From Halomonas sp. (GTDB lineage Bacteria; Pseudomonadota; Gammaproteobacteria; Pseudomonadales; Halomonadaceae), in NCBI GenBank assembly GCA_017515565.1, contig JAFWFN010000019.1:17785-81784 (forward strand): a DNA stretch of 64,000 bases. Reading direction: 5' to 3'. The position numbers and the translations under genes are program-made. Each line of letters starts with the position of its first letter. Position 1 is the first letter of the stretch. A model generated the notes under the pieces. That model saw only the letters and a program-made list of their open reading frames with translations, was not told the origin of the DNA and did not search any database. Below are positions 6,569 to 46,405 of the stretch, one piece after another.

Positions 6569-6678
6569 AATGCCCTTGTGTATGGTGGATGGGCCGAACG
6601 GCCTAAGATAACCGCCCATTCTAGCGCTTTGTACCCAGGCTGGAAACGTCCAGTGCCGCCGTTTCGCTGCAGGCAGTT

Positions 6679-6738: not shown

Positions 6739-9588
6739 ATGGACAGCATTCTGGTCAGGGGTGCCCGCACCCACAACCTCAAGCAGATCGATGTGGAGCT
6801 GCCACGCGATAAACTGATTGTTATTACAGGACTTTCAGGCTCAGGCAAATCATCGCTAGCGTTTGACACGCTCTACGCCGAAGGGCAGCGCCGCTATGTG
6901 GAGTCTCTCTCTACCTACGCGCGCCAGTTTCTTTCGATGATGGAAAAGCCCGATGTAGACCACATTGAAGGGTTATCGCCTGCGATTTCCATTGAACAGA
7001 AGTCCACCTCCCACAATCCTCGCTCCACCGTTGGCACTATTACTGAGATTTACGATTACCTGCGCCTAATGTTTGCCCGCGCCGGTACGCCGCGCTGCCC
7101 GGAACACGGTGAAGACCTTGAGGCGCAAACGATTTCGCAAATGGTCGACCAGGTAATGAACCTGGCCGAAGGCACCAAGCTGATGCTATTGGCGCCGGTG
7201 GTGAAGGGCCGCAAAGGGGAACACCTGCAGCTGTTGGCCGAGCTTCGCGCCCAAGGCTTTGTGCGCGTGCAAATTGACGGCCAGGTGCTTGAATTAGACG
7301 ACATTGCGCCGCTGGATAAACGCAAGAAGCACGATATCAGCGTCGTCGTTGACCGCTTTAAAGTGCGCGACGACATCGCCCAGCGTTTGGCCGAGTCATT
7401 TGAAACCGCAATCAGCCTCGCCGATGGCACGGCAATGATTCACTTTATGGATGGCGAGCAAGAAGATCTCGCCTTTTCATCGCGCTTTGCCTGCCCGGTG
7501 TGCGGCTACTCGCTCTCTGAGCTTGAGCCGCGCATGTTCTCGTTTAACAACCCCGCGGGCGCCTGCCCTACCTGTGACGGACTAGGCGTGCAGCAATATT
7601 TTGATCCTGAAAAGCTGATCAGCCACCCGGAACTTTCGCTGGCCGAAGGCGTAATTAAAGGCTGGGACCGGCGCAACATTTACTACTTTACCCAGTTACA
7701 GGCGCTGGCCAATCACTACCGGTTTGAGTTGGAAACGCCCTGGAGCGAGCTTGCCCGCCACGAGCGGGAGATTATCCTCAACGGCAGTGGTGACGAACAA
7801 ATTCCGTTCACCTATGTGGGCGACCGTGGCCGCAAGGTAACCCGCGAACACGCTTTTGAGGGCGTGTTGCCTAATATGCAGCGCCGCTACCGGGAAACCG
7901 AATCCAACATGGTGCGCGACGACCTAGCCAAGTATATCGCCGTGCAGCCCTGTGCCACCTGCAGCGGTTCGCGGCTGCGCAAAGAGTCCCGCCACGTTTA
8001 TGTCGATGACCAAAATATCGCTGATATTGTGCGCCTGCCCATTGGCGATGCGTGGCGCTACTTTGCAGATCTAAGCCTACCGGGCCGCAAAGGCGAAATT
8101 GCCGATAAAATCGTCAGTGAAATCCATGCCCGCCTGGAATTTTTGGTCAACGTGGGGCTTGATTATCTGAACCTTGAGCGCAGTGCCGATACACTCTCCG
8201 GCGGTGAAGCCCAGCGAATTCGTTTGGCCAGCCAAATTGGCGCGGGGCTGGTCGGCGTGATGTACATTTTGGATGAGCCTTCCATCGGCCTTCACCAGCG
8301 TGACAACGACCGCCTGCTGAAAACCCTGGAGAGGCTGCGGGACTTAGGCAATACAGTGATCGTTGTGGAGCACGACGAAGATGCCATCCGGGCCGCTGAC
8401 CACGTGCTGGATATCGGCCCTGGTGCCGGTGTCCACGGCGGTGAAATCGTCGCCCAGGGCACGCCCCAAGACGTTATGGACAACCCCAACTCGCTCACCG
8501 GCCAGTACCTTTCAGGCACGCGGGAAATCGCCGTGCCGCCCTACCGAATTCCCGGCAACCCGGAAAAGCAGCTGGTGCTGCGCGGTGCTACGGGCAACAA
8601 CTTGCAAGACGTCACTTTAAGCCTCCCGCTGGGGCTGTTTATCGCCATTACGGGCGTTTCCGGCTCGGGTAAATCCACCCTGATCAACGGCACGCTGATG
8701 CCGATTGCGGCCCGGGAATTAAATCGCGCGACCACGCTGACCGCTGCACCTTATGAGAAAATTGAAGGGCTGGATCAGCTTGATAAAGTGATCGATATTG
8801 ATCAAAGCCCGATTGGCCGTACGCCACGCTCTAACCCCGCGACGTACACCGGGATTTTCACCCCTATTCGTGAGCTGTTTGCGGGCACTCAGGAAGCGCG
8901 TTCACGGGGCTATAAGCCGGGCCGTTTTAGCTTTAACGTGAAAGGTGGACGCTGCGAAGCCTGCCAGGGCGAAGGCATGATCAAGGTAGAGATGCACTTT
9001 CTGCCGGATATTTACGTGCCCTGCGACGTGTGTAAGGGCAAGCGTTACAACCGCGAAACGCTCGATATCCATTACAAAGGCAAAACCATCCATGAAGTCC
9101 TAAACATGACGGTGGAAGACGCCTTAGCGTTCTTCAGCCCAGTACCCGCTATTGCCCGCCGCTTACAAACCCTTCTGGATGTAGGTCTTTCCTATATTCG
9201 CTTGGGGCAAAGCGCTACCACCCTATCCGGCGGTGAAGCCCAGCGCGTTAAGCTGGCTCGGGAGCTGGCTAAGCGTGATACCGGTAAAACGCTGTATATT
9301 TTAGATGAGCCCACTACTGGTCTGCACTTTGAAGATATTCGCCAACTGCTGACCGTGCTCCATCGTCTGCGCGATCACGGCAATACCATTGTGGTGATTG
9401 AGCACAATCTAGACGTTATCAAAACCGCTGACTGGATTATCGACCTGGGGCCTGAAGGCGGCTCTGGCGGTGGAAAAATCATTGCCAAAGGCACCCCCGA
9501 ACAGATCGCCAAACAGAAGGTTTCTCACACAGGGCGCTTCTTGGCCCCGCTACTGGCCCGGGGTAAACGCAACGCTAAACCCGCCTAA
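6739..9588 (+). CDS. uvrA: Excinuclease ABC subunit A
   Basis: [15 protein letters not shown], two Walker A ([18 protein letters not shown]), two LSGGEAQR signatures, zinc-finger CxxC pairs. Start taken at ATG 6739 (GAGG RBS). Confidence 0.99.
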
Positions 9589-13692: not shown

Positions 13693-14271
13693 ATGCAAAC
13701 GTACACCTCTTTCCCAACGCTTGTGATTAGCACCATGGCGAGCGCCACCCTTTGGGTTGCCGCGCCCTTCGCCGCAGCGGCTACGTTTAACATTGAGCAG
13801 CCCGACACCCATGGCCATTGGCAGTCGATGGTGCTTGCCCTGGGTGACGAACGCCACGTGCGCGCAGTGGAAACCCACAGCTACTCAGATGCGACCTTAA
13901 GCCTCAACGCGACCCAGGGCGTTTGTGATCTACCTTGGCTGGAAATGCGCGTTACCCTTGAGCAGCAACAGGGGGAAAGCAAAGCGGTCAATCTCGTACC
14001 GGCTAGGCTGCGTATTGATGAGCAGCCCATCGTGGATACCATGGCGGAATTTATTACCGAGCGCGGCGACGATGGCTTTTACGCACACTTCTATCTCAGC
14101 GAAATGCCTGCATTAATAGACGACATGCGCCAGGGCGAGCAGCTATTTATCGGCTTTGACCAAGAAGCGAGCGCACCGTGGTATATGACGTTTAGCCTGG
14201 AAGGTGCTGATAGCGCCATTGGGCGCATGCAATCGCTGTGCGATGCCTTCTTATCTACTGATGCCCCCTAG
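13693..14271 (+). CDS. Secreted hypothetical protein
   Basis: 192-aa ORF; signal-peptide-like N-terminus ending AAAA; C-terminal FSLEGADSAI..LC reminiscent of IalB/VasI-like proteins. Confidence 0.7.
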   Translation: MQTYTSFPTLVISTMASATLWVAAPFAAAATFNIEQPDTHGHWQSMVLALGDERHVRAVETHSYSDATLSLNATQGVCDLPWLEMRVTLEQQQGESKAVNLVPARLRIDEQPIVDTMAEFITERGDDGFYAHFYLSEMPALIDDMRQGEQLFIGFDQEASAPWYMTFSLEGADSAIGRMQSLCDAFLSTDAP

Positions 14272-17010
14272 CTTATCGGCATGAATACACGCCTCGTCTT
14301 GTAGCCGTAAATGTTCGATGGGCTGGGGCCGCGAGAAGAAGTAGCCCTGGAAGGAGAGACACCCCTGGGCATAGAGCCAGTCACGGTGCGCTTGAGTCTC
14401 AACTCCCTCTGCAATGACCTCCAGCTCCAAGCTGTGAGCCAGCGCAATGACGGTTCGTACAATCGCGGCGTCGGCGGGGTCATCCAACACATCGCGAACA
14501 AACGACTGGTCAATTTTAAGCTGGTCCAGGGGGAGCTGCTTGAGGTAGGCCAGCGATGAATAGCCGGTGCCGAAATCATCCAGTGAGAAGCGAATCCCCA
14601 GCTGCCGCAGAGCCTCCATGCGGCAACGCACTTCGGCAATGTCCTCCATGAGCAGTGACTCGGTCACTTCAAGCTTTAGCCGCTGCGGATTGGCCCCGGT
14701 ACGTGCTAAGACTGCTTTTATTTGTTCAACAAAACCTTCTTGTCGGAACTGGTTAGGGCTAACGTTAACCGCAGCACACAGCGCTGAGGTATGCGGCTGC
14801 TGCGACCAGACCACTAGCTGCTGACAAGCCGTTTCCAGCACCCACTCACCAATTATCCCAATGAGGTGCGTTTCCTCCGCTAGCGGAATAAAGACGCCCG
14901 GTGACACAATACCGCGCCTGGGATGCACCCAGCGCACGAGCGCCTCAACGCCCACGACCTGGCCACGCTCATCCACCTGGGTTTGGTAGTAGAGCGAGAG
15001 CTGCTGTCGTTCTATCACGTGCCGTAGGTCAGATTCTAGCTGGGCACGCTCCATCACTGCGGCTTGCATGGAGGGGTCAAAAAAGCACAGCGCATTGCGC
15101 CCAGAGGCTTTGGCCTGGTACATCGCCAAATCTGCCTGCTGTAAAATTTCGCTTACGCCTACCGCCTCCCCCGCAAATAGCGTAACGCCAATACTGCCAG
15201 AGACCTGGAGTGGGTGGTCATCAATGACCAACGGTTCTCTGAGTGCGGTCAGCAGCTTATAAGCAACACCTTCTGCATGCTGCGCAGCCACCGCGATATC
15301 GTCCCCCAGCTCATGAAGCATAACGACAAATTCGTCGCCTCCCAAGCGGGCGGCGGTATCACTGTCACGCACAATACCCGCGAGCCGTTTGGCAACGGAT
15401 ACCAGTAACGCATCGCCTAGGTAGTGGCCCAGGCTGTCGTTAATGGTTTTGAAGTTGTCCAGGTCAATAAACATCACCGCGCTGTAGTGACTCTCCTGCC
15501 GTGTCTCCCGCTGCCGGGCCTCAATGCGGTCAATTAAAAGGCGACGGTTGGGAAGCCCGGTAAGGGCATCAAAAAACGCTAGCTGATGAATTTCCTGTTC
15601 AGCGGCTTTGCGCTGGGTGATATCACTCAAAGTAGCTACATAGTGGGTAACGGCGCCGCTATCATTGCAAACAACGCTAATGGTCAACCATTGGGGATAA
15701 ACTTCACCATTTTTACGCCGATTCCACACCTCACCTTGCCAGCGACCCTGCTCACTGAGGGATAGCCACATCTGTCGATAAAACGCGGCATCATGGCGGC
15801 CAGAATTCAGCATCGCCGGTGTAAGGCCCACCACTTCTTTTTCGTCGTAGCCGGTGATCTCACTAAAGGTGTGGTTAACCTGCACAATGCGGTTATCCGC
15901 ATCTGCAATAAACATGCCCAGGTGCGTTTCAAACGCCATTGCAGCAATTTTTAGCTGCGCGGCTTCAAGCTCAGTGGCTTGCTGCGCTTTTTTTCGGGCT
16001 GCCACCTCCTGAGTAAGCTGTTGGCGGTGTTCACGCAGGCCTTTTTCCGCCGCATAAAGGCGCCGGTAGTGGTGAAAGGCCGTCGCTCCCAGTGCTGCTA
16101 ATAGCCCCACTACCACCAAGATAATCCAAAACCGCCGCCACCAGTCGTTCAAATAAAAGGTGGTGTCTTCTCCACTGATGACTAGCCAGGGGGCATCACT
16201 CAATCGCCGCGCGCTAAACAGCCGCTGCGTATCATCGACTGGCGAAACGCGCTCCCACGTGGCCGCCAGTTGTTCACTTGCTAAAAAATGCGCCAGTTCG
16301 GGGGTACTGACCTCGCGGCCCAGCAAGGAGGGCGCTTCCTCGCCCCCCTGAGAGCGTTGCATGATGACACGGGGCGTAGCATCTAACAGTGCTAGACTAG
16401 CGCCTTCGTTCAGGGTTAAACGTCCCATCAGCTGCACAAAATAAGCAGGATCTAACCGCGCAACGATATAGGCCTCCGGCTCCCCAACGCTGTTTTCTAC
16501 GCTTAGTAGGTGGAGCAGGCGAAGTCCATCCGCTCTCTCTGACCAGTAAAGGCGCGAGACGACATCGCGGCGGGCACTTTGCCTGGCTAACCCAGACAAA
16601 ACCTCCTGTACGCCAACATCAAACCGCGTACTCTGAAGCGGTAGTGTTGATGCCAGTACATTGCCTTGCGGATCAAGCAGGCCAACTTCATCCCAAAGTG
16701 CGACTTGGTCGCGTTGCTGCAACAAATAGTGCGTCAGCACAGTCGTATCAATACGCTCGTCATGGGTGAGTTGATAGAGCGCCTCAACGCTCTCAAGGGC
16801 ATGACGTGAGGTCTCGAGGGCGCTTCCTAACCACTCCGCCACTACATCAGCACTAGCACCTGTACGCGACTGCGCCGAGGTTTGCTGGTTGAGATAGTAG
16901 GTGCGCATCTCCCACACCACCAGCATGATGATACTTGCCAGTAATAGGCTGCCAAAGAGCCCTACCCATCTAGGGGAGAGGTAGCGCCACTTCTCACTCC
17001 AATACCTCAA
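14251..17010 (-). CDS. Membrane Cache-like sensor-PAS-GGDEF-EAL protein
   Basis: Two TM segments flank a periplasmic region; PAS/PAC; RLGGDEF with RDSD I-site; EAL, DDFGTGYSSL, EGVE, QGY. TTG start overlaps the upstream stop (TTGA). Confidence 0.95.
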   Translation of the reverse strand: MRYWSEKWRYLSPRWVGLFGSLLLASIIMLVVWEMRTYYLNQQTSAQSRTGASADVVAEWLGSALETSRHALESVEALYQLTHDERIDTTVLTHYLLQQRDQVALWDEVGLLDPQGNVLASTLPLQSTRFDVGVQEVLSGLARQSARRDVVSRLYWSERADGLRLLHLLSVENSVGEPEAYIVARLDPAYFVQLMGRLTLNEGASLALLDATPRVIMQRSQGGEEAPSLLGREVSTPELAHFLASEQLAATWERVSPVDDTQRLFSARRLSDAPWLVISGEDTTFYLNDWWRRFWIILVVVGLLAALGATAFHHYRRLYAAEKGLREHRQQLTQEVAARKKAQQATELEAAQLKIAAMAFETHLGMFIADADNRIVQVNHTFSEITGYDEKEVVGLTPAMLNSGRHDAAFYRQMWLSLSEQGRWQGEVWNRRKNGEVYPQWLTISVVCNDSGAVTHYVATLSDITQRKAAEQEIHQLAFFDALTGLPNRRLLIDRIEARQRETRQESHYSAVMFIDLDNFKTINDSLGHYLGDALLVSVAKRLAGIVRDSDTAARLGGDEFVVMLHELGDDIAVAAQHAEGVAYKLLTALREPLVIDDHPLQVSGSIGVTLFAGEAVGVSEILQQADLAMYQAKASGRNALCFFDPSMQAAVMERAQLESDLRHVIERQQLSLYYQTQVDERGQVVGVEALVRWVHPRRGIVSPGVFIPLAEETHLIGIIGEWVLETACQQLVVWSQQPHTSALCAAVNVSPNQFRQEGFVEQIKAVLARTGANPQRLKLEVTESLLMEDIAEVRCRMEALRQLGIRFSLDDFGTGYSSLAYLKQLPLDQLKIDQSFVRDVLDDPADAAIVRTVIALAHSLELEVIAEGVETQAHRDWLYAQGCLSFQGYFFSRPQPIEHLRLQDEACIHADKLGGISR

Positions 17011-19010
17011 GATGGCTCCTTAATGGCGACTTCAACACGGTTGCGCCCACTGCGTTTTGCCTGGTACATCGCCATATCAGCGCGGGCGACTAACGTTTTG
17101 CAGCTGTCTCCGGGCCGCCATGCCGCGACCCCAACGCTGACGGTAATCGGCTGTGGTAATTTATTTACCTCCTGCGAGGCAACAAGGTGGCGCAGCCGCT
17201 CCGCCAGCCCAGCTGCCGCCTCTATATCGGAGTGAGTCGCTAGCACCACAAACTCTTCTCCGCCCCAGCGGCCAAGATGGTCACAACCGCGTAGAGAGCT
17301 TTCCACCAAGCGCGCTAGCGATACCAACACGTCGTCACCCAAGCTATGTCCGTAGCCATCGTTGATCTGCTTAAAGTGGTCGACATCGAACAGCAACACT
17401 GCAAAGACTGCGCCATAGCGTTTAGCTGCCACCAGCTCAGCGTCGATGGCTTGCTCAATGCGGTAGCGGTTCCACACCTGGGTAAGCGGGTCGAAATGCG
17501 CCAGCTGCTCTAAGCGCTGATTTGCTTCCGCCAGCGCTTTGCGCTCGCACTCTAGGTACATATTGAGCGTGCTGATTTCGTACGCTGAAATCGCCAACGT
17601 TAGGTCTTCCCCCAAGTCCACCGCCGCTAGGCGCTCGACCCGCTGCCACGACTCGCTTTTACCCACCACTTCTTCATGCCATGCCGCCGGGGGGGTGGCC
17701 ATGACGGCTTCCTGTGGGAAGGCTTTAGGCTGCATCGCCCAATAGAAGCTTTCTACCTGTTCAGGGCGGAAAAATAGCAGCCAGCCGCGCTGGGCGGGGT
17801 TCACGGGCAGGGGTACCGCTAGCACACCACACTGCTCGGGCATGGCTAGCGATGAGGTTAACGGCTCCTTAGAGATATCCCGGGTACACCACGGCCCGCT
17901 GTGTACATGGGCTTTATCCAAGCGCCTAGCCAACTGGCTAATCGCCTCTGGGGCAGGCGTATTACCAGACTGAAAAACGCTGCCCTTCGCCCATAGTGCC
18001 ACGCCGTGGGAACGAAACAGTGCCATCCAGGTATCTGCCTGTTCAGCTAAAAGTTGCTGGGGGCTTTGCGGCTCTACGCGTGCTTTGGTTGAAAGCGCCA
18101 GGCTATCCTGCACACGCTGTAGATAGCGCGCTTCTTGACGTGCCCGCAGCAGCAGCAGGCGCTGAGTCGCCATTTGCACCAGCATGCGCACTGCGTCACG
18201 CACCGGAGGAGCCACCGGATGTGGTTTCGCCGAATAACAAAACAGCAGCCCCCAAAGGCCAGTATCGCTCTGCATAGCAACGCTTAACGCCCCGCGAACG
18301 CCAAGACGGTGCAGATAGCGTTGACGCTCTGGAGCAGGGGCACGCAGAAAACTATCGTTAAGTGCCACAGGGCAGTCACGGGGGACTAAGTGTTCACTAG
18401 GCGCTGCCACATCCTCAATTAAGCGCACCGGGTGGCGCTCGTAGGCGAGGCGTAAGGAAAGGGGGAAATCGCTGGCGGGAAAACGCTGGCCTAGCAGTGT
18501 CGGCAAGCCGCTGCCGCATGCTTCGGCGACGATCAGCCCGTGCCAGTCGCTATCAAAGTGGCAGATCGACACGCGATCGTGACCGGTCAGCTCTTGAACA
18601 GCCCGCACCAGGTAGTCAAGCAACTCCTCTTGATGACTCGCTTCCGTCAGCCGCAGCAGGCGCTCATTCACCGTTCCTAACAAGCGCCGTTTCCCAATCG
18701 GTGTTAGTGGTTCAATTTCCACCACAACGTAGGCGCCTGAACGGTAGGCATACAGCTGAAAGCGCGTTGGGCTCGCCGGGCGGGTAAAGGTTAGCGGCCC
18801 GGCCAAGCGCTGCTGGCCCTGTAGCTCGTGGCGAAGCCGTTGGCTTAGGCGTTTACCAAGCACTCCCGACAGCATCTGATCACGCCCGTCGGTAACGGTC
18901 GTGCCAACAAGTGCGGCAAAGTTGCTACTGAAAGCTTGAATGCGCCGACTGTCAGCATCCAACACCAGTAAAGCGCCAAACGACTGAAGTAAAGGGTGTT
19001 GCTTCGGCAC
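17007..19010 (-). CDS. Bacteriophytochrome-fold (PAS2-GAF-PHY) diguanylate cyclase with degenerate chromophore pocket
   Basis: LQSFGALLVLD, LTGHDRV, RFPASDFP, LWGLL, FFRPE..FYWA match the BphP photosensory core; C-terminal DPLTQVWNR...RGCD..GRWGGEEF. Confidence 0.92.
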   Translation of the reverse strand: MPKQHPLLQSFGALLVLDADSRRIQAFSSNFAALVGTTVTDGRDQMLSGVLGKRLSQRLRHELQGQQRLAGPLTFTRPASPTRFQLYAYRSGAYVVVEIEPLTPIGKRRLLGTVNERLLRLTEASHQEELLDYLVRAVQELTGHDRVSICHFDSDWHGLIVAEACGSGLPTLLGQRFPASDFPLSLRLAYERHPVRLIEDVAAPSEHLVPRDCPVALNDSFLRAPAPERQRYLHRLGVRGALSVAMQSDTGLWGLLFCYSAKPHPVAPPVRDAVRMLVQMATQRLLLLRARQEARYLQRVQDSLALSTKARVEPQSPQQLLAEQADTWMALFRSHGVALWAKGSVFQSGNTPAPEAISQLARRLDKAHVHSGPWCTRDISKEPLTSSLAMPEQCGVLAVPLPVNPAQRGWLLFFRPEQVESFYWAMQPKAFPQEAVMATPPAAWHEEVVGKSESWQRVERLAAVDLGEDLTLAISAYEISTLNMYLECERKALAEANQRLEQLAHFDPLTQVWNRYRIEQAIDAELVAAKRYGAVFAVLLFDVDHFKQINDGYGHSLGDDVLVSLARLVESSLRGCDHLGRWGGEEFVVLATHSDIEAAAGLAERLRHLVASQEVNKLPQPITVSVGVAAWRPGDSCKTLVARADMAMYQAKRSGRNRVEVAIKEPS

Positions 19011-19030
19011 GAAAATAGCCTCGAAAAAGT

Positions 19031-19705
19031 CTATTCACCCTTGACCTGCTGCTTTAGCAACAGCTCAACGCGCCGATTGGCTGCTCGCCCTTCTGCGGTC
19101 GCGTTACTTTCCATGGGTTGGGTGTCGGCATATCCGACCGCCCGCATTCGTGAAACAGCGACTCCCTGGCGCTCAAGGTGGCGCACAACCGCAATCGCGC
19201 GACCTACCGAGAGCTCCCAATTCGACGGGAACCGAGGAGTAGCAATGGGTATATTATCGGTATGCCCTTCTACCGAAATTTGACCTTCAAAGGCCTCAAG
19301 CGCCGTTATCAGGTTTTCTAACACATCCTGTCCTTGGGCCGTTAGCACTGCATCGCCACTGGGAAACAACAGGCTATCGTCGATACGCAGGGTAAGGCCT
19401 TCACGGCCCTGGGAAACACTGACCCCGGGAATATTTAGCCCTGCCATCTGCGGCCTTAGCCCCTGGTGACGAGGCTGAATACCGGTGGCTAAGGTTGCCA
19501 GGGGCAGTGAAGTAATCGCACTGGCCGAGCGCATTCTGTCGCTATCAAATGCCTCCCCCCCTCCTGGTGGCGTTAATGCCAGCAGGAGGACAAAGAGGGT
19601 GATTAACAGCGTCAAAACGTCCAAGTAGCTCGTTAACCAGCTCTCATCACCCTCGCCTGCCGCAGGGGGAAGTTCCAGCGCATGACGGGCTTCGCTATCC
19701 AGCAT
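19031..19705 (-). CDS. Second stator B subunit (MotB/PomB/MotS family, OmpA-like domain)
   Basis: WLTSYLDVLTLLITLFVLLL TM segment with the essential Asp; VEGHTDNIPI...SNWELSVGRA...NRRVE. Confidence 0.9.
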   Translation of the reverse strand: MLDSEARHALELPPAAGEGDESWLTSYLDVLTLLITLFVLLLALTPPGGGEAFDSDRMRSASAITSLPLATLATGIQPRHQGLRPQMAGLNIPGVSVSQGREGLTLRIDDSLLFPSGDAVLTAQGQDVLENLITALEAFEGQISVEGHTDNIPIATPRFPSNWELSVGRAIAVVRHLERQGVAVSRMRAVGYADTQPMESNATAEGRAANRRVELLLKQQVKGE

Positions 19706-19709
19706 GGCG

Positions 19710-20528
19710 CTACCCTTTTGTCGCGGAGCTAGGCGTGGCGCGTGGCTTTACAGTGGCATCGCGTATTTCGTCGTGGTAGTTGGCAACAAAGGAGTTGAGT
19801 GTTTCTTCAATAAACGACGGCAAGCGACGTTTGGTGATCAGCGATATACCTTCAAGCACCATATTCATGGTGATGAGGCGCTCTTCGGTACGACGCTCAA
19901 GCTTAACGGCGATAGGCTTAAACACTAGGTTGGCGAGCAAGATACCGTAAAACGTGGTGAGCAAGGCAACGGCCATGCGCGGGCCAATGACCTCCAGGTC
20001 ACCCGCATCCATTACCTCAAGCATATTGACCAACCCCACCAAGGTGCCAATCATGCCAAAGGCAGGCGCATAGGTTGCCATTGTGCGGAAAATTTGTGCC
20101 TCCGCATGCTCGCGCGCTTTTAACCGTGCTATGCGCCAGCGCAGCATGTCGAAGATTTCATCCTCTTTGGTATTGGCAATCACCAGTTGAATGCCCGTGC
20201 GTAGAAACGGGTTACGGGTGTGCTCAAGCTCTTTTTCCACCGCCCGAACATCGCCTTTAAACCATAGCCGGGACATCGACACGAGTTCGTTAATGTCATC
20301 TCGAACATAGGTGTTTTCACGGCGAAACACTAAGCCTACCAAGCGCACTACCCGAAGCACTTCTTTCAGCGGGTAACTGATAAACGTAGCGGCCAGCGTG
20401 CCGGTGATGACAATCGCTAACCCAGGTAAATTAAGAAAGCTTTCTGGGGACTCTGCGGTAAAAAACAGCACGCTTACCAGCAGTAGAATGCTGGCAGATA
20501 TACCGATCAGCGTAGATGGGTTCATCAA
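19710..20528 (-). CDS. Second stator A subunit (PomA/MotP-like)
   Basis: APAFGMIGTLVGLVNML and IGPRMAVALLTTFYG closely follow PomA/MotP; four TM segments. Confidence 0.9.
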   Translation of the reverse strand: MMNPSTLIGISASILLLVSVLFFTAESPESFLNLPGLAIVITGTLAATFISYPLKEVLRVVRLVGLVFRRENTYVRDDINELVSMSRLWFKGDVRAVEKELEHTRNPFLRTGIQLVIANTKEDEIFDMLRWRIARLKAREHAEAQIFRTMATYAPAFGMIGTLVGLVNMLEVMDAGDLEVIGPRMAVALLTTFYGILLANLVFKPIAVKLERRTEERLITMNMVLEGISLITKRRLPSFIEETLNSFVANYHDEIRDATVKPRATPSSATKG

Positions 20529-20564: not shown

Positions 20565-21263
20565 TTAATTGGCATCGTGCAAACGGGCGCGTAAACGGCT
20601 AACGGCCTGACTATGCAGTTGGGAGACACGGGACTCGGTAACCCCCAGCACAGCGCCCACCTCTTTTAAGTTCATCTCTTCTTGGTAGTACAGCGCCATT
20701 AACAGCTTTTCTCGCTCTGGCAGCGCCTCAATCGCTTCAATCAAGGTTTGACGTTGTTGGGCGTCCAACAACTGGTCGAAGAGCAAATTGCCAGCGCCGC
20801 TACTAGGCTCACCGCCCTCTGTCACCAGTTCTTCAAACGGCAGCAGTTGGCCGCTGTTGGTGTCATTGAGTAGCTGCTGATAGTCGCTGAGCGGCATCTC
20901 TAAATCACGCGCGATTTCCCCCTCTTCGGGAGCGCGACCTAGCTGTTGCTCCAGCCGCCGCACCGTCTCATCCATCGCCCTGGCCGAACGCCGCACGCTA
21001 CGGGGTAGCCAGTCGCGCGTGCGTAGCTCATCCATCATGGCGCCACGAATTCGCTGGCTGGCAAAGGTGGCAAATGTCGCGCCTTGGGCCGCATCAAAGC
21101 GCCCAAGGGCTTCTAATAACCCCACCATGCCCGCCTGGATAAGATCATCTAGCTCGATGCTCGCGGGCAACCTCACCTGCAGCGTTAAGGCCTGACGTCT
21201 CACCAGTGGCATGTATTGGGTTAACAGCTCACTCTGTTTGATCCTGCCTTGTGCTGTATACAT
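20565..21263 (-). CDS. fliA: Flagellar sigma factor sigma28
   Basis: DDLIQAGMVGLLEA, RIRGAMMDELRTRDWLPRSVR, LGVTESRVSQLHSQA. Confidence 0.98.
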   Translation of the reverse strand: MYTAQGRIKQSELLTQYMPLVRRQALTLQVRLPASIELDDLIQAGMVGLLEALGRFDAAQGATFATFASQRIRGAMMDELRTRDWLPRSVRRSARAMDETVRRLEQQLGRAPEEGEIARDLEMPLSDYQQLLNDTNSGQLLPFEELVTEGGEPSSGAGNLLFDQLLDAQQRQTLIEAIEALPEREKLLMALYYQEEMNLKEVGAVLGVTESRVSQLHSQAVSRLRARLHDAN

Positions 21264-21808: not shown

Positions 21809-22375
21809 TTACCGGGCAAGCAACAGCAGTTCTGTGTCTAAATAACCTGCGGCAGCTTCTCGCAAGTTATCGAGTAATCCTTGGCGTGGCAAGTGGGGCT
21901 CATGCAGCGCCAAAAGGCGCTTTGGGCCTTTGTTGTCATGCACTTGTCGCAAAACTCGGTACATCGGCATAAACGCATCCGCATCGCTACTTACCCACAA
22001 CGCCCACCGCGGGTAACGCGCCACCAGTAATGGCAGATTGGCTGTAGCAGGGTCAACTAGGTGAATGTCCCAGCCATCTGGGTCGCCTGCCCAGCGGCGC
22101 CCCAACGCCGACCATTGGCTGAGGCGACTTCTTACCTTGTTAACCTGGTGCTGATGGGTGGATAAGCCCACCACCACCAGCGGCTGTTTCGGCGTGGGGG
22201 GTGCCTCTACTGTCGGCACCATGGCGGATGCAGCATAAACGGAAGCCGCTTCCTTTGAGACGGGCTCTGCGGGGACTGGCTCATCCGGCAGAGTATCTTC
22301 GGGCATTTCTCCGCGCTGCTGACGCTGTAAATCCGCCCATTTACGCAGCCCCGCTGCCTGGTCTTGGCTGCTCAT
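21809..22375 (-). CDS. FlhG/FleN-related protein lacking the ATPase P-loop
   Basis: N-terminal DQAAGLR motif; sits directly after flhF (ATGA overlap); no KGGVGKT; C-terminal half weakly resembles FlhG. Confidence 0.65.
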   Translation of the reverse strand: MSSQDQAAGLRKWADLQRQQRGEMPEDTLPDEPVPAEPVSKEAASVYAASAMVPTVEAPPTPKQPLVVVGLSTHQHQVNKVRSRLSQWSALGRRWAGDPDGWDIHLVDPATANLPLLVARYPRWALWVSSDADAFMPMYRVLRQVHDNKGPKRLLALHEPHLPRQGLLDNLREAAAGYLDTELLLLAR

Positions 22376-32050: not shown

Positions 32051-32923
32051 TTATTTTTTAGCGGGGGTGTAGACCGTCTGCCCACGCAACTTGAATGCAT
32101 CGCTAATATAGGAGAAGTTTTCAGAGTGCCCTGCAAACAGCAGGCCATCTGGTTTCATGAGCGGCGCAAACCGCTTTAGAATTTTCGCCTGAGTATCTTT
32201 ATCAAAATAAATCATGATATTGCGGCAAAAAATGGCATCAAAGGGCCCTTTAACGGGCCACTGGGGCGCCAGCAGGTTAAGCGGCAAAAACTCCACCAAC
32301 GCGGATACTTCAGGTCGTATGCGGGCAAGACCAATATGGTTGCCAGTACCTTTCTGAAAAAACCGTTTTACCCGCACATCATCAAGTTTACGAACCTGTT
32401 CCTGGGGATAAATACCGGCGCGAGCCCTATCCAGCGCGTCAGTATCAATATCCGTGGCGATGACTTTCGCTTGAGAGGCTTTGGGGCCTAGCGTTTCCAG
32501 CAGCGTCATGGCTATTGAATACGGCTCTTCACCCGTGGAGGCCGCTGAGCACCAAATAGTGACCGGCTCCTGTTTATGCTTGATGTGCTCAGCCAGCAGC
32601 GGAAAGTGGTGCGCCTCACGAAAAAACGCCGTGAGATTGGTGGTGAGTGCGTTAGTAAACGCTTCCCACTCTTTGGCATCGGGCTGACGCTCTAAGCGTG
32701 ACAGGTAGTCGGTAAAGTGCGTTATGCCGTGGTGGCGCAGCCGCTTTGCTAAACGACTGTAAACCATTTCACGCTTATGCTCGGCAAGCACGATACCGGC
32801 ACGCAGGTAGATCAGTTCTCTAATACGTGAAAAATCGGCATCTGTAAGCAGCAAATCGCGCTCGATCTGCCCACTAGACGCCCATTGGCCGGCTTCGGCT
32901 CCCCATTCGCGTTGTCCGCTCAA
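32051..32923 (-). CDS. cheR: Chemotaxis methyltransferase CheR
   Basis: [39 protein letters not shown]. Probable TTG start overlapping the aer stop. Confidence 0.97.
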
Positions 32924-35085
32924 AACTCTTCCCACTCCTCTGCAGAAACCGATTGCCGCTTCACAAGCGGCGCCGGCGATGTCACGCTATTTGGCTTCGC
33001 AGAAAGTTTATGCGCGGCAGCAGGTGCCCCAATAGCGGCTGGCATAGCCTGTAGCGACTGTTGATGGTTTAGCCGAAACGCCTCTACAGATAACGCCAGC
33101 AACCCCGCTTGATGTTCTAATGCTGCCGCAGCCCGCGCGGTTTCCTGCACGCGGCCAGCATTTTGCTGGGTCGCTTGATCCATTTCCGCCACGGCTTGGT
33201 TTACTTCTGCAATACCGCTGCTCTGCTCTTCTGAAGCAGAAGAGATCTCATGCATAATCTGCGTTACGTTGCGTGCCGCTTCAGCAACCTCTCTCATGGC
33301 CGCTTCAGCTTTTTCCACTAGCCCGGCCCCTGCACTAACATCCTGACTGGAGCCGTCAATTAATACCCGGATCTCTTGGGCCGCGCCTGCACTGCGTCCC
33401 GCCAAATTACGCACTTCTTCTGCCACAACCGCAAAGCCGCGCCCGTACTCCCCTGCCCTTGCCGCCTCAACCGACGCATTAAGCGCCAGAATATTGGTTT
33501 GAAACGCAATAGAATCAATGACGTTGATAATCTCGGTCATTTTGCGCGAGCTTTGGGTTATACGCTGCATGTTGTCGACTAGCTGTGTCATCAGCTCGCC
33601 GGTTTGCGTCACCCGTGTAGCATTATTATCGGCCAGACGGCGGGCTTCTTGAGCGTTATCGCTATTTTGGCGCACAGTCGTGGTTATCTCTTCCATGCTG
33701 GAAGCGGTTTGTTGCAGCGCGGCGGCCTGCTCCTCTGTACGCGATGACAGCTCTTCATTACCACTGGCAATACCCTGCGCCGCAGGAGTCACTACCTCAA
33801 TTCCGCTTTTAACCTCGCCAATAATACTGCTCAGGCTTTTACGCATGGTATTTAGCGAATCAAGCAGTAGGCCAATCTCATCACGACGACGGGCAGGCAC
33901 ATGGGCTGCCAAGTTGCCCCCCGCTATTTGCAGGGTAAAGCGCGCAGCACTTTTTAACGGTTTAACGATTGAGCGTAACGTGAGTGTGCCTATTAGTATG
34001 AGTATCAGTAAGCCAATACTCAGCACGGCCGCCTGAGCGCTTAGCATGGCGGTTTGCTCCTGCTCAGCCTCTACCGCCATGACTTCCGCAGCAGCCTGTT
34101 TTTGCGCAATCAGCTGATTCACCATCTCCGACAGCGCTCGCCCATCGGTATTCATCACACGAATCACCGCATCTAAACCAGTAAACGCTTCATACGTCTC
34201 TTCAGCTTGCAGCACGTTTGCCGCTTGCCCCATGCCATTAGCTAAGAACGACTGGAGCTGTTGATCAAAACTATCCGCAAGCTGACTAGCGTTAGCATCA
34301 CGCTGGTAGTACGCCTGCCAAACCTCAGCTACCTCCGCGGCGTTTTCCGCCACAGCTTCGCCCATCTCAAACCGTTGACTGATGAGCTGCATCCTTTCTG
34401 GTTCGATCATCGACTGACGAGTGTGGGCAATGGTTTGGTCGATCTGCTGCAGACGGATAACATCGCGCAGCCCATCGTTATTGAGGCGATCTAGCCGGTC
34501 ACTGGCGCCATTTAATCCATAGAGTCCTAGCCCGCCACTGACTAACAGCAGCATGCCTGCCACCACAATCATGCCCACCAGCTTGGCGCGGATGGTGTGC
34601 AGGCGCACCCGCTTAAGGCGCTGCACCAGCCCCTTATAACGTATACGTCCTTTATCTAAATAGACCCGCTTAAGACGCCCCTCACGAATACCTGCGTATA
34701 CCTGTTCTGCCTGGGCGATTGCCTCCCGTGACGCCTGAACCCGCACTGAGGCATAGCCGATCACCTGATCATTCTCGACAATCGGCGTCACGCTGGCGTC
34801 TACCCAATAATGGTCACCGTTTTTGCAGCGGTTTTTAACCAGCCCACGCCACGTTTCACCGGTTTCGATGGTTTGCCATAAATTTGCAAACGCCGCTGGC
34901 GGCATATCCGGGTGGCGGATCAGGTTATGCGGCGCCCCAATTAGCTCGTCATGGCGAAAGCCACTAATCTGGATAAACGCCGGATTAGCATACGTAATGC
35001 GACCTTTAAGATCCGTTCGCGAGACGAGAAAATCGTCCCCCTTTAGCTCAACTTCGCGTTGGGAGACTGGCTGATTGTTACGCAT
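32920..35085 (-). CDS. Aer-type PAS chemoreceptor with an additional periplasmic domain
   Basis: [11 protein letters not shown]...[20 protein letters not shown]...[10 protein letters not shown]...W..I...[15 protein letters not shown] (Aer FAD-PAS); TM; ~150-aa loop; TM; HAMP; MCP signalling domain; C-terminal EEWEEF. Confidence 0.93.
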
Positions 35086-39194: not shown

Positions 39195-40112
39195 TCATTC
39201 GGCTACGTCGGCCTGTGGCATGTCTGGTAGTAAAGCCTCTTCGGGCGAATCGCCCTCAGGTAACAGCACATCAGCGCCAAGAATACCTGGGTCGCGAATT
39301 GTCTCAGCAATTTCGGGTAACAGTACTAAAAGCTCAATACGCCGATTAATAGGGTCTGAGGGGGCAGTGTCAGGCAGCAACACCCTATCGGCAAAGCCCG
39401 ATACCCGCAGTAATTGACCTGGGTCAAGCCCACCGACCACCAACTCCCGACGCGAAGCATTGGCGCGGTCACTGGATAGCTCCCAATTACTGTAACCTCG
39501 ATAGCCACCCGCATAGGGCACGCTGTCGGTATGACCGCTGATGCTTAGGTCATTGGGCAATTCATTGAGTAATGGCGCGATAGTGCGTAGAAGGTTACGC
39601 ATATAAGGTGCCACCTGATCACTACCTAGTTGAAACATTGGCCGCTGCTCTGTATCGAGCAGTTGAATGCGCAGCCCTTCACGGGTAAGGTCAAAACGCA
39701 TTTGGTTGCGCAACTGGCGCAGCTCCGGGTCTAGCTCAATGGCTCGCTCTATACGTTCTTGTAAATCAGAGAAAAAACGCCTCTCTTGCAAGCTGGGCCG
39801 CGGCTGTAGAGACAAATCTACCCGGGCGCGCTCACCATCGCTATGGGCTGGATCAGGCCCGCCACCGGGAATCACCCGCGTACTACCACCCCGGTCGCCG
39901 GTCATCGCGGTTATCAGCGGTGTACTAAAGTACTCGGCAACACCGCGCCGCGTTTCATCACTGGAGACGCTTAAAATCCACATCACCAGGAACAGGGCCA
40001 TTAGCGCGGTCATAAAATCAGCCAAGGCGATTTTCCATGCTCCCCCATGATGAGCATGAACCACTTTTTTGCGCCGAATGACTATCGGGCGCTTGTCACC
40101 GCCCTTACTCAT
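39195..40112 (-). CDS. motB: Flagellar stator MotB (enteric H+-type)
   Basis: HHGGAWKIALADFMTALMALFLVMWIL; SGHTD, NWELSSDRA, NRRI. Confidence 0.97.
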   Translation of the reverse strand: MSKGGDKRPIVIRRKKVVHAHHGGAWKIALADFMTALMALFLVMWILSVSSDETRRGVAEYFSTPLITAMTGDRGGSTRVIPGGGPDPAHSDGERARVDLSLQPRPSLQERRFFSDLQERIERAIELDPELRQLRNQMRFDLTREGLRIQLLDTEQRPMFQLGSDQVAPYMRNLLRTIAPLLNELPNDLSISGHTDSVPYAGGYRGYSNWELSSDRANASRRELVVGGLDPGQLLRVSGFADRVLLPDTAPSDPINRRIELLVLLPEIAETIRDPGILGADVLLPEGDSPEEALLPDMPQADVAE

Positions 40113-40978
40113 GCATTACCGCCCTTCTTGGCGTCGCGCACGTACTCTTCAAGTTCTGAGAAACTAGGACGTTCGGTGCTGTGCAGTGCCTTACGACCGA
40201 ACTCAACGGCTAACTGAGGTGCATAACCATGCAGACTCGCTAGCAGCGTGACACGGATACACTGCAGCATTTTTTCCGCTTCTTTTGCCTGCCGATCTGC
40301 GTAGCTAGCAATTGGGCTGATAAAGCCGTAACCCATCAAAATCCCTAGGAAGGTGCCCACTAGCGCCATCGCAATCATTTGACCCATTTGGTCAGGGCTA
40401 GCATCTGCATAGGTCAGTGCTTTAATTACCCCCATTACCGCAGCCACAATGCCAAACGCAGGCATGGCATCACCTACTTTAGCAATCGCATCAATGGGAA
40501 TATGGGCTTCTTGCTCAAATACTTCGATTTCGTGAAGCATCAGTTCGTCGATTTCCATCGGCTCCATGCCGCCGCTTACCATTAGGCGCAGGTAATCGGT
40601 TAAAAAATCCATAATGTGCGGGTCCGCAAGTACCGTGGGATGTTCTTGAAACAGCGGGCTTTCCTGAGGGTTATCGATATCGCGCTCAATCCCCAGCATC
40701 CCCTCACGGCGCACTTTGGAGAGAATTTTGTACTGCAGCGCCATTAGCTCCATGTATAGGGCTTTGTTATATTTTTTGGTCCGTTTGAGCCGCGGCAGTA
40801 TTTTAAACGTGGCTTTAATCGCTTTACCGTTATTGGCGGCAATAAACGCGCCTACGCCCGCACCGCCAATAATTAACAGCTCTAAAGGTTGATACAGGGG
40901 GCCTAAACTACCACCTGCCAGCACATAGCCGCCAAATACACACAATATTACGACCACATAACCTAGGAGAATCAGCAC
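40109..40978 (-). CDS. motA: Flagellar stator MotA (enteric H+-type)
   Basis: QPLELLIIGGAG, DAMPAFGIVAAVMG, ALVGTFLGIL..YG, AVEFGRK. Confidence 0.97.
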   Translation of the reverse strand: MLILLGYVVVILCVFGGYVLAGGSLGPLYQPLELLIIGGAGVGAFIAANNGKAIKATFKILPRLKRTKKYNKALYMELMALQYKILSKVRREGMLGIERDIDNPQESPLFQEHPTVLADPHIMDFLTDYLRLMVSGGMEPMEIDELMLHEIEVFEQEAHIPIDAIAKVGDAMPAFGIVAAVMGVIKALTYADASPDQMGQMIAMALVGTFLGILMGYGFISPIASYADRQAKEAEKMLQCIRVTLLASLHGYAPQLAVEFGRKALHSTERPSFSELEEYVRDAKKGGNA

Positions 40979-44713: not shown

Positions 44714-46405
44714 TCAGGTGGATACTGCCACCTCCCTAACAGGCCGCCCCAACCTCTCAAAGACATCACCATGCACGGATATTCCCAACGTATCGCGCAG
44801 CGGCGGCTCAACCCCCTCGGCCAGAACTACCTCAGATGGTGTACCATCTTTATTAAGGCGCACAATCCAGGCCAACTGCTCACTTGAAAAGTGGGCAAGC
44901 GAGCCAACAGGAAGCGTTTTAAAGTGCTCGACATAGCGCTTGATCCAGCGAGGATCAAATTGATGCGGATGACGCAATAAATGACGATAAATTTGTTGCG
45001 CTGTTCGAGCCGGACGGTCGGCCCGGTCACGGCGCATTGCCTCAACAACATCGACAATCGCGCTGGCTTTAGCCAACTCGTTAATATCATTACCCGACAA
45101 ACCGTCTGGGTAGCCACTGCCATCAAGCCGCTCGTTAATGCCCCCAATTACCGCCTTGGCAACGGAGGCTGAAAGCCATTGACAGTTGTGTAGCCGATCC
45201 ATTAGCAGAGACACATGCTCACTCATGGCCTGACGATGGGTAGCTTCAAAATTGGGCGCCTTGAAAACCACTTGGGGAACAAGCGCCTTGCCTAGATCGT
45301 GGATCAAACCACTGGCCACAACCGCCTTTTGCACGTCGCGCGGCATGTTACTTCCCACTAGATCCAGCAGGTGCACTGCCACGGCAATACCATGGCGCAC
45401 GAGAAGCGGCTCAGGGGATAAGCAGCGCGAAGCAAATAGCAGCGCCTCGCGATCCTCTTCATGCAGCATTAATACGCGGTCGGCGTTGCGCGAGAGTTGC
45501 CGGGAGTCAATATCACTACCCTGTTGTAGCAGCAGTAATTGAGCATCTAGGTAAGCCGCCACCTTCACAAGGCGCCTAGCCGTCGGGGTGGCGTAACGCT
45601 TAATATCGCGGCGCCCAACAAGCTCTGACCCTTCGGCTCGCCTACCTGTCTGCTCAAACAGTGGCGATGGCTGACGATCTTCTTGCGTCTCTTTCTTATA
45701 GCGTGCCGCTTCACGCTCAATCTCACACACGAAGTACCAAATTTGACGCTCTTGCTCCGACGTGCAATTTGCAAAACGAAACCCCACCCGCAAAATATGG
45801 CGCTCAGGGTCTGTTTTCTGGTGGCGGGCCACGCCCTGTGCTTCAAAATAAGTACCATCAGGAAAGGTATAGGCAAGCTTAAGGGGACCATCAGCCTCAG
45901 CAAGCACGCCACTCGCAGCTAAAGGCAGCTCTATCTGGCAGCCATCCTGGGAAAGATCGCGCAGCTCACCCTGGACGCTCTCACCATCGGCGCTAACCAC
46001 TGCTGCGGACACCACCATCCCCATGCGCAGCTCTGCGCGAAACGATTCGCGCCGCTGCAGCACATCTATTGAGGCTGGGTAGTCGCTACAGCATAAAAAA
46101 CGCCCACCGGTGCGTCGCGTTTCGGTTAACGAAAGCAGCGGCGTACGCAACACCTTGCCCTGAGATTGGCCGCGTAAGAAGAATTGTTCGCCCTGCTGCA
46201 AGCGGCCTAGCAAGTAATCAACGGAAGACAAGTCCATGACCAGGGCTTCCCCAGCGTGCTGTTCCATTAACACAATAGGCTCAGGACGCGCATCCGACGT
46301 AGCCAAACAGAGCGATACACCACCGCTTTCAATCATGGCATTTAAATAAGCGCTTATCGTTGAGGCACTGGTAACGCCTTCATACTCATCTTGCTGAACG
46401 ACCAT
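44714..46405 (-). CDS. YcgR/PilZ flagellar-brake-like protein fused to a degenerate HD-GYP domain
   Basis: QRRESFR (RxxxR) and DLSQDG (DxSxxG); then IHDLGK and GINERLDGSGYP. Confidence 0.87.
   Translation of the reverse strand: MVVQQDEYEGVTSASTISAYLNAMIESGGVSLCLATSDARPEPIVLMEQHAGEALVMDLSSVDYLLGRLQQGEQFFLRGQSQGKVLRTPLLSLTETRRTGGRFLCCSDYPASIDVLQRRESFRAELRMGMVVSAAVVSADGESVQGELRDLSQDGCQIELPLAASGVLAEADGPLKLAYTFPDGTYFEAQGVARHQKTDPERHILRVGFRFANCTSEQERQIWYFVCEIEREAARYKKETQEDRQPSPLFEQTGRRAEGSELVGRRDIKRYATPTARRLVKVAAYLDAQLLLLQQGSDIDSRQLSRNADRVLMLHEEDREALLFASRCLSPEPLLVRHGIAVAVHLLDLVGSNMPRDVQKAVVASGLIHDLGKALVPQVVFKAPNFEATHRQAMSEHVSLLMDRLHNCQWLSASVAKAVIGGINERLDGSGYPDGLSGNDINELAKASAIVDVVEAMRRDRADRPARTAQQIYRHLLRHPHQFDPRWIKRYVEHFKTLPVGSLAHFSSEQLAWIVRLNKDGTPSEVVLAEGVEPPLRDTLGISVHGDVFERLGRPVREVAVST

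Follow-up and report, generated by a model that had tools for sequence, protein, structure and literature searches.

What holds a phytochrome module in place once the protein appears no longer able to hold a pigment? The question is raised by a 64,000-nucleotide stretch of Halomonas sp. DNA (assembly GCA_017515565.1, contig JAFWFN010000019.1, positions 17,785 to 81,784; hereafter the window), which encodes on its reverse strand a PAS-GAF-PHY-GGDEF protein of the PadC type, a group of bacteriophytochrome (BphP)-derived diguanylate cyclases that serve as a model for sensor-to-enzyme signalling via a coiled coil and are used as optogenetic tools. PadC has been defined by an N-terminal Cys, DIP, PRxSF and GGDEF/GGEEF (Böhm et al. 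2022; PMC9587094); three of these four motifs were absent from the window protein and GGDEF/GGEEF was present, and the PadC architecture, a heptad-class linker and descent from the PadC lineage were all found. We refer to this protein, and to relatives with similar losses, as blind PadC. The gene is probably a bilin-free PadC descendant, orthologous to the published HmPadC+14 and kept as a light-independent allosteric cyclase module.

Lost and retained features of the bilin pocket

The gene, its domains and its altered motifs are given below. Substitutions were read from the alignment to IsPadC and from the checked translation, and numbers of the Tyr176, Ser257 and His260 type are canonical positions. 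Clade counts here and elsewhere cover 64 Vreelandella-type, 7 Billgrantia-type and 4 Marinobacter-type members.

17007-19010 (-): blind PadC-type diguanylate cyclase gene, a complete open reading frame (ORF) of 667 aa with a GTG start
18708-18992 (-): PAS_2 domain (Pfam), residues 7-101; the N-terminal segment with the biliverdin Cys is gone and 7 residues precede LQSFG
18162-18629 (-): GAF domain (Pfam), residues 128-283; former bilin pocket remodelled
18555-18566 (-): ICHF, Tyr176 replaced by Cys150; Cys in 64/64 Vreelandella-type and 7/7 Billgrantia-type members
18462-18470 (-): DFP for DIP, residues 181-183; Asp and Pro kept, Ile replaced by Phe, with Phe in 62/64 clade members
18324-18335 (-): APER for SPxH; Ser257 replaced by Ala226, His260 by Arg229
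18231-18239 (-): CYS for CHH; clade consensus CHS
17592-18071 (-): PHY domain (Pfam), residues 314-473
17661-17765 (-): PHY tongue, residues 416-450; WAG changed to WAM, PRxSF deleted, W-x-E kept
17493-17585 (-): coiled-coil sensor-effector linker, 42 residues by the definition of Böhm et al., +14 class; dN about 0
17037-17501 (-): GGDEF domain (Pfam), residues 504-658; DPLT wide turn, GGEEF at 17250-17264, RGCD I-site at 17280-17291

Pfam E-values of the domains ranged from 1e-9 to 1e-43 (GGDEF, E = 3.7e-43), and the top solved relative by sequence was the red-light-activated cyclase IsPadC (5LLW; E = 8e-100). An AlphaFold2 model computed from a 57-sequence alignment had a mean predicted local distance difference test score of 88.4, and its best Foldseek matches were full-length IsPadC chains (template modelling score 0.67-0.70). 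Blind PadC keeps the PAS-GAF-PHY fold and the long helical spine.

The N-terminal segment that bears the biliverdin Cys (C17 in IsPadC) was missing from the window protein, and LQSFG stood where the canonical IQPxG would be. A Shine-Dalgarno sequence, GAGG, lay 8 nt 5' of the GTG start, and this start, 7 residues ahead of LQSFG, was kept in 17 orthologous loci. Upstream of it the frame reads I-D-F-F-E-A-I-F, includes no Cys and shares its DNA with the 3' end of a motB-like gene (stop 19031-19033); because of this overlap, and because the frame is closed by a TGA at 19035-19037, no longer N-terminus is available to the protein. Two public metagenome runs contained contigs matching the locus with one extra A after position 19023, a site within the 20-nt motB-padC spacer and 5' of the Shine-Dalgarno sequence.

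The tongue was about six residues shorter than that of IsPadC (ATPPAAW versus GPRKSFEAW) and was modelled as two predicted strands with a low-confidence tip, which was also variable among relatives. A first-pass annotation of the window, made from its letters, had described a protein that begins at LQSFG with no Cys upstream, had read DIP as DFP, SPxH as APER and the Tyr of LYKF as Cys, and had reported the PRxSF tongue as lost; the alignment and translation bore out each of these. It had also listed CHH to CYS among the losses. That substitution is present, but it is not diagnostic: CYS was limited to the sublineage of the window, the rest of the clade having mostly CHS, and position His290 varied (G, H, K or A) even among canonical PadC relatives, so loss of His290 carries no diagnostic weight.

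Retained pocket residues, which the first-pass annotation had not mentioned, were F203, D207, P209, Y216, R222, R254, Y263 and C288, and within the Vreelandella clade the propionate anchors Y216, R222 and R254 were found in 64/64 members and D207 in 60/64. Positions conserved in at least 95% of that clade and unlike the canonical consensus were C150, F182, P225 and R229, all of them in the former pocket, and former-pocket positions were more conserved than the remaining GAF domain (0.53 versus 0.99 bits, p = 0.007). By comparison, the canonically invariant chromophore contacts S206, S257, P258, S272 and S274 were relaxed to 0.8-1.5 bits in the blind proteins, which makes it less likely that a tetrapyrrole is bound in its former geometry. 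The pattern fits a pocket in which biliverdin would no longer be held as before, yet which is not free to drift. Cys258 was found in 64/64 Vreelandella-type proteins, and the other conserved Cys residues were 375, 576 and 637. Two candidate features were set aside: Glu228 as a propionate mimic was dropped as the residue is variable within the clade (1.49 bits), and a heme-ligating Cys150-His151 dyad was down-weighted as neighbouring strand residues point to opposite sides.

The output domain had been described as intact in the first-pass annotation, and was found to be so. GGEEF occupies residues 583-587, and the RxxD I-site, R574-G-C-D577, lies five residues ahead of it. D507, L509, T510, N514, D542, D544, K547, N550, D551, GGEEF, K652 and R656 were invariant among the aligned relatives, and the GGEEF cyclase with its RxxD product-inhibition site is predicted to be competent. 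The 42-residue linker, the same length as in HmPadC+14, was found in 63/64 Vreelandella-type, 7/7 Billgrantia-type and 4/4 Marinobacter-type members; its +14 heptad class suggests that the coiled-coil transmission element is intact.

Relatives, heme oxygenase and selection

A search with the sensor module only returned about 90 full-length PAS-GAF-PHY-GGDEF proteins, which formed a graded series. Canonical PadCs (from Oceanisphaera, Aquisalimonadaceae, Haliea and others) had the N-terminal Cys, Tyr176, DIP, SPxH and PRxSF. Vreelandella/Halomonas orthologues, 55-98% identical to the window protein, all had its substitutions; a Billgrantia/Halomonas group (45-48% identical) had Cys at 176, DFP and Gln at 260; and a Marinobacter-type group (about 39% identical) had Ala at 176 (3/4 members), Ala at 207 and Gln at 260. 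Neighbour joining on 471 sensor-module columns recovered the three blind groups as a single clade in 200/200 bootstraps, nested within the canonical PadCs and with P0073-75 as sister. Given this monophyly and nesting, the simplest reading is that the pigment site was lost once, in the ancestor of a halophilic/marine gammaproteobacterial clade (Vreelandella/Halomonas, Billgrantia and Marinobacter), along with the adjacent heme oxygenase gene bphO.

Degenerate PadC-like proteins were also found among cluster representatives. Among the best 141 of 1.84 billion representatives searched, 17 lacked at least three of seven hallmark features, and nearly all of these were placed beside the blind clade, a placement subject to the caveat of long-branch attraction. 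Their named sources included Halomonadaceae bacterium T82-2, Modicisalibacter luteus, Methylophaga and Haliea sp. E1-2-M8. The last of these encoded a canonical PadC with an adjacent heme oxygenase (P0087, locus L109) as well as a degenerate PadC-like paralogue (P0131). Representatives P0101-P0138 included a wide radiation of degenerate PadC-like proteins. Two of them looked intermediate, P0107 (DLP) and P0108 (DIP), both with His260 kept and without the N-terminal Cys and PRxSF, which suggests that photosensory features may have decayed stepwise.

A bphO gene at the same locus is typical of the BphP family, though not obligatory. A heme oxygenase gene (PF01126) lay directly 5' of PadC in 3/3 canonical loci fetched. 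A tblastn search with the BphO of a canonical relative had no match in the window, and the same query against 30 fetched loci had none except its own source locus; nor did a Pfam scan of about 40 window ORFs return a heme oxygenase, in agreement with the first-pass annotation. Its central claim, that bilin photosensing had been lost, has been strengthened, as three of four PadC motifs are gone, the loss is monophyletic, and bphO accompanies the canonical genes fetched and none of the blind ones.

We calculated the ratio of nonsynonymous to synonymous substitution rates (dN/dS) by the Nei-Gojobori method (NG86) for the window against its three closest relatives (dS 0.18-1.1). Whole-gene dN/dS was 0.05-0.07, and by domain it was 0.09-0.11 in PAS, 0.03-0.08 in GAF, 0.04-0.06 in PHY, about 0 in the linker and 0.025-0.05 in GGDEF; 17 other orthologues left this picture unchanged. 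The sensor module was constrained almost as strongly as the catalytic domain, and the whole protein was under strong purifying selection. Full-length ORFs were open in more than 60 sequence clusters. The search for orthologues with the same substitutions and the selection test proposed in the first-pass annotation thus point to a functional gene and not a decaying one, dN/dS being low in every domain. One orthologue, in Halomonas olivaria (AP019416; L002, 9989-11998), was split into two ORFs beside neighbours that also looked fragmented, probably an assembly error and not biology.

The novelty implied by the first-pass annotation was overstated, as a Halomonas orthologue without the essential motifs had already been described. 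HmPadC+14 of Halomonas meridiana (WP_159340624), a 670-aa protein with a 42-residue linker, was reported as "missing all essential motifs", and its expression was too low for purification, so that it was left uncharacterised (PMC9587094); no further mention of it was found in the literature searched. It shares with the window protein its clade, its size class (670 versus 667 aa) and its 42-residue +14 linker, and in the sensor module Vreelandella aquamarina/meridiana-type sequences had about 73-74% identity with the window protein. The two differ in species, and the sublineage of the window has CYS in place of CHS and an extra downstream PAS-GGDEF-EAL gene. What the present analysis adds is the view across the clade, the measurement of selection, the contrast in bphO and the linkage to a stator operon.

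With IsPadC and other PadCs (PDB 5LLW, 5LLX and 6ET7) the window protein shares the PAS-GAF-PHY, coiled-coil and GGDEF fold, a heptad-class linker, GGEEF and the I-site. It differs from them in having DFP and in lacking the Cys segment, His260, Tyr176, PRxSF and an adjacent heme oxygenase, and with these losses red-light activation is not expected. Apo-IsPadC was unstable when expressed in E. coli by the group of Böhm et al., which leads one to expect that a protein stable without bilin would depend on compensating changes of the kind found in the pocket.

A conceptual precedent is achromo-RpBphP4 of Rhodopseudomonas palustris, which Vuillet et al. reportedly described in 2007 as a BphP that had lost its chromophore and become a redox sensor with a histidine-kinase output. 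It too belongs to a BphP lineage that no longer binds a chromophore and is still functional, but the losses were independent, one in an alphaproteobacterial histidine kinase and the other, with GGDEF output, within gammaproteobacterial PadCs; redox sensing has reportedly been demonstrated for achromo-RpBphP4 and is hypothesised for the window protein. As in achromo-type proteins, the bilin Cys of the window protein is gone and the protein is retained under purifying selection, its function, like our other functional statements, being read from sequence; this, and a homologue already in the literature, temper the practical value of the finding. A subfamily in which the chromophore was discarded and the transmission apparatus remained under selection could help to separate the parts of a phytochrome needed for allostery from those needed for light capture. 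Should the module respond to redox state, to a ligand or to the state of the stator, it would be the second documented conversion of a phytochrome to a non-light sensor, here tied to the motility of halophiles.

Possible roles of the light-independent module

In the window, blind PadC comes after the second of two stator gene pairs, which itself follows the gene for FliA:

20565-21263 (-): FliA (sigma-28), the upstream-most gene of the fliA-motA-motB-padC run examined
19710-20528 (-): MotA-family (MotP/PomA-like) stator subunit
19031-19705 (-): MotB/MotD-like stator subunit; stop 20 nt ahead of the blind PadC start

The stator pair at 19031-20528 scored best against the MotP/PomA and MotD NCBIfam models, below their cut-offs, and a classical MotA1/MotB pair lay at 39195-40978 in an flhDC-type operon, so that the window holds two stator sets. 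We compared 24 Vreelandella-type loci (21 screened together plus L106-L108), 19 of which extended far enough upstream; fliA-motA-motB lay immediately 5' of the blind gene in all 19. Gaps along fliA-motA-motB-padC in the window were 36, 4 and 20 nt, and these intergenic gaps contained no terminator-like site, the few intragenic matches being rarer than in shuffles. The terminator and promoter scan as a whole found nothing exceeding shuffle expectation. The sigma-28 promoter pattern TAAA-N14-17-GCCGATAA had no match in the window, so dependence of the operon on FliA is not shown.

On the reading that we prefer, a bilin-free and light-independent cyclase, blind PadC would no longer sense red light and would be co-expressed with the second stator set, synthesising cyclic di-GMP (c-di-GMP) in flagellated cells under product inhibition. 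The former photosensory module would act as a light-independent dimeric allosteric unit: by setting the coiled-coil register, it would control the activity of the cyclase. Whether it still answers a cue other than light, be it the redox state of the Cys150/Cys258 thiols, a small ligand or a partner protein (for example the stator), we judge to be evenly balanced, and such a response is more likely than a purely constitutive scaffold. The probabilities that we attach to the alternatives below overlap with one another and with that of a non-light cue, and need not add up to one.

Several observations weigh against this reading, in whole or in part. Five residues that secure the pyrrole and propionate groups of the chromophore in canonical BphPs (D207, Y216, R222, R254 and Y263) are still present and leave room for a tetrapyrrole-like ligand, and for every clade member we infer the missing bilin binding from sequence alone. 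In BphP variants that lack the Cys, non-covalent binding of biliverdin can still occur. Blind genes of Billgrantia and Marinobacter lay outside flagellar clusters, so the stator link is lineage-specific, and loss of the pigment site appears to pre-date recruitment to the stator operon. The sole RNA run with the locus was a metatranscriptome whose 7-kb contig had flat depth across convergent genes and is possibly DNA. Single frameshifts occurred in three metagenomic copies (L096 at about 7226-7239, L099 at about 1218-1231 and L103 at about 6663-6669), two of them in the same position (query residues 412-416) and the third close to residue 225; sequencing or assembly errors may explain them, or occasional loss in some strains.

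The strongest alternative, although we consider it doubtful, is the constitutive scaffold, in which PAS-GAF-PHY only dimerises and fixes the coiled-coil register and control is left to transcription (the FliA regulon) and the I-site. Loss of every chromophore-linked switching element (the N-terminal segment, PRxSF, His260 and Tyr176) is in keeping with it, as are the five relaxed contacts and the variable tongue tip with its low confidence in the model, and a place behind fliA and the stator genes would allow control at another level. Set against these, a 475-residue module held at dN/dS 0.03-0.10 across three domains, in lineages down to 39% identity, exceeds what a dimerisation handle usually needs, the pocket substitutions are fixed across the clade and not drifting, and the linker is nearly invariant.

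It is rather unlikely, by our estimate, that the rebuilt bilin pocket binds something new and that c-di-GMP synthesis at a stator operon, possibly of the sodium type, has come to follow that signal. Such a pocket would combine Cys150 opposite Cys258, Arg229 in place of His260, and the retained Arg/Tyr carboxylate anchors, and its new input might be a tetrapyrrole such as heme, a metal, or the reversible formation of an intramolecular disulfide. If this were true, a phytochrome fold would have become a sensor of chemicals or redox state that controls motility, and the solution may be common to a large, hitherto unrecognised group of degenerate PadC-like proteins from halophilic and marine Gammaproteobacteria.

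A little less probable again is a thiol redox sensor, in which Cys150, alone or with Cys258 on the neighbouring strand, would be reversibly oxidised and so shift the coiled-coil register. The fixation of Cys150 in Vreelandella- and Billgrantia-type proteins speaks for it, together with invariant Cys258 in the former and the conserved Cys residues 375, 576 and 637. Position 176 is Ala in three of the four Marinobacter-type members, however, and Cys258 is no new feature, as light-sensing PadCs conserve it too. The redox or metal idea of the first-pass annotation is weakened in the same way, since Cys150 is the only invariant residue behind it and the Marinobacter-type proteins mostly have Ala there.

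We regard as improbable a stator-coupled cyclase, whose module would be an interaction surface for the MotP/PomA-like and MotD-like stator, with c-di-GMP reporting engagement or load. The constant fliA-motA-motB context in the 19 long-enough loci and a PilZ-HD protein within the same flagellar cluster would suit it, and there is a published case of stators stimulating a diguanylate cyclase: the MotC stator of P. aeruginosa stimulates the cyclase SadC (10.1101/483339). Both systems tie a diguanylate cyclase to a second flagellar stator set, but SadC is a membrane protein without a phytochrome module and is encoded outside the stator operon, whereas the link here is one of gene order only. Blind PadC has no membrane segment, its Billgrantia and Marinobacter relatives have no flagellar context, and adjacency of genes is no proof of physical contact.

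Slightly more improbable still is a pocket that continues to bind a tetrapyrrole or dicarboxylate (heme, protoporphyrin or non-covalent biliverdin), which would make the protein a sensor of heme, gas or ligand, or a residual photoreceptor. The propionate anchors and the conservation of the pocket relative to other GAF positions would be expected of such a protein, but the conservation argument is weak, as a buried core is conserved anyway. The Cys, His260, Tyr176 and PRxSF are all gone, the five Ser and Pro contacts are relaxed, no heme oxygenase lies nearby in the window or in the blind loci searched, and His151, on a beta-strand beside Cys150, should by strand geometry face away from the pocket. 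Finally, the reading of the gene as a decaying photoreceptor without a selected function, for which the loss of all photosensory hallmarks and the frameshifts in three metagenomic contigs could be cited, is effectively refuted by dN/dS values of 0.05-0.10 in every domain, the lineage of the window included, by full-length ORFs in more than 60 clusters and by invariant catalytic and I-site residues.

Other genes near the stator operon

The gene that follows blind PadC is found in few of its relatives.

14251-17010 (-): PAS-GGDEF-EAL protein with a weak dCache-like N-terminus, overlapping the blind PadC stop by 4 bp

It was present only in the sublineage of the window (L106-L108) and absent from 21/21 other Vreelandella-type loci screened. 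Billgrantia campisalis (L082, 14197-16104) had a 60%-identical PAS-GGDEF-EAL homologue two genes from its blind PadC, and canonical PadCs likewise had GGDEF-EAL neighbours. A convergent ORF of 192 aa at 13693-14271 (+) was found in 20/21 Vreelandella-type loci screened (67-81% identity) and had no match in Pfam or NCBIfam.

Within the flagellar cluster, an ORF of 188 aa at 21809-22375 (-) lay between flhF and flhE, a place where one might look for a FleN/FlhG-type gene; it had no NCBIfam match, and no Pfam match was recorded in the orthologous loci. A methyl-accepting chemotaxis protein at 32920-35085 (-) had an N-terminal cytoplasmic PAS domain followed by a TarH/4HB module. The PilZ-HD protein, at 44714-46405 (-), is a 563-aa protein with PilZ and HD_5 (HD-GYP-like) domains and weak YcgR-like similarity, and could serve as a c-di-GMP receptor or phosphodiesterase in the same circuit.

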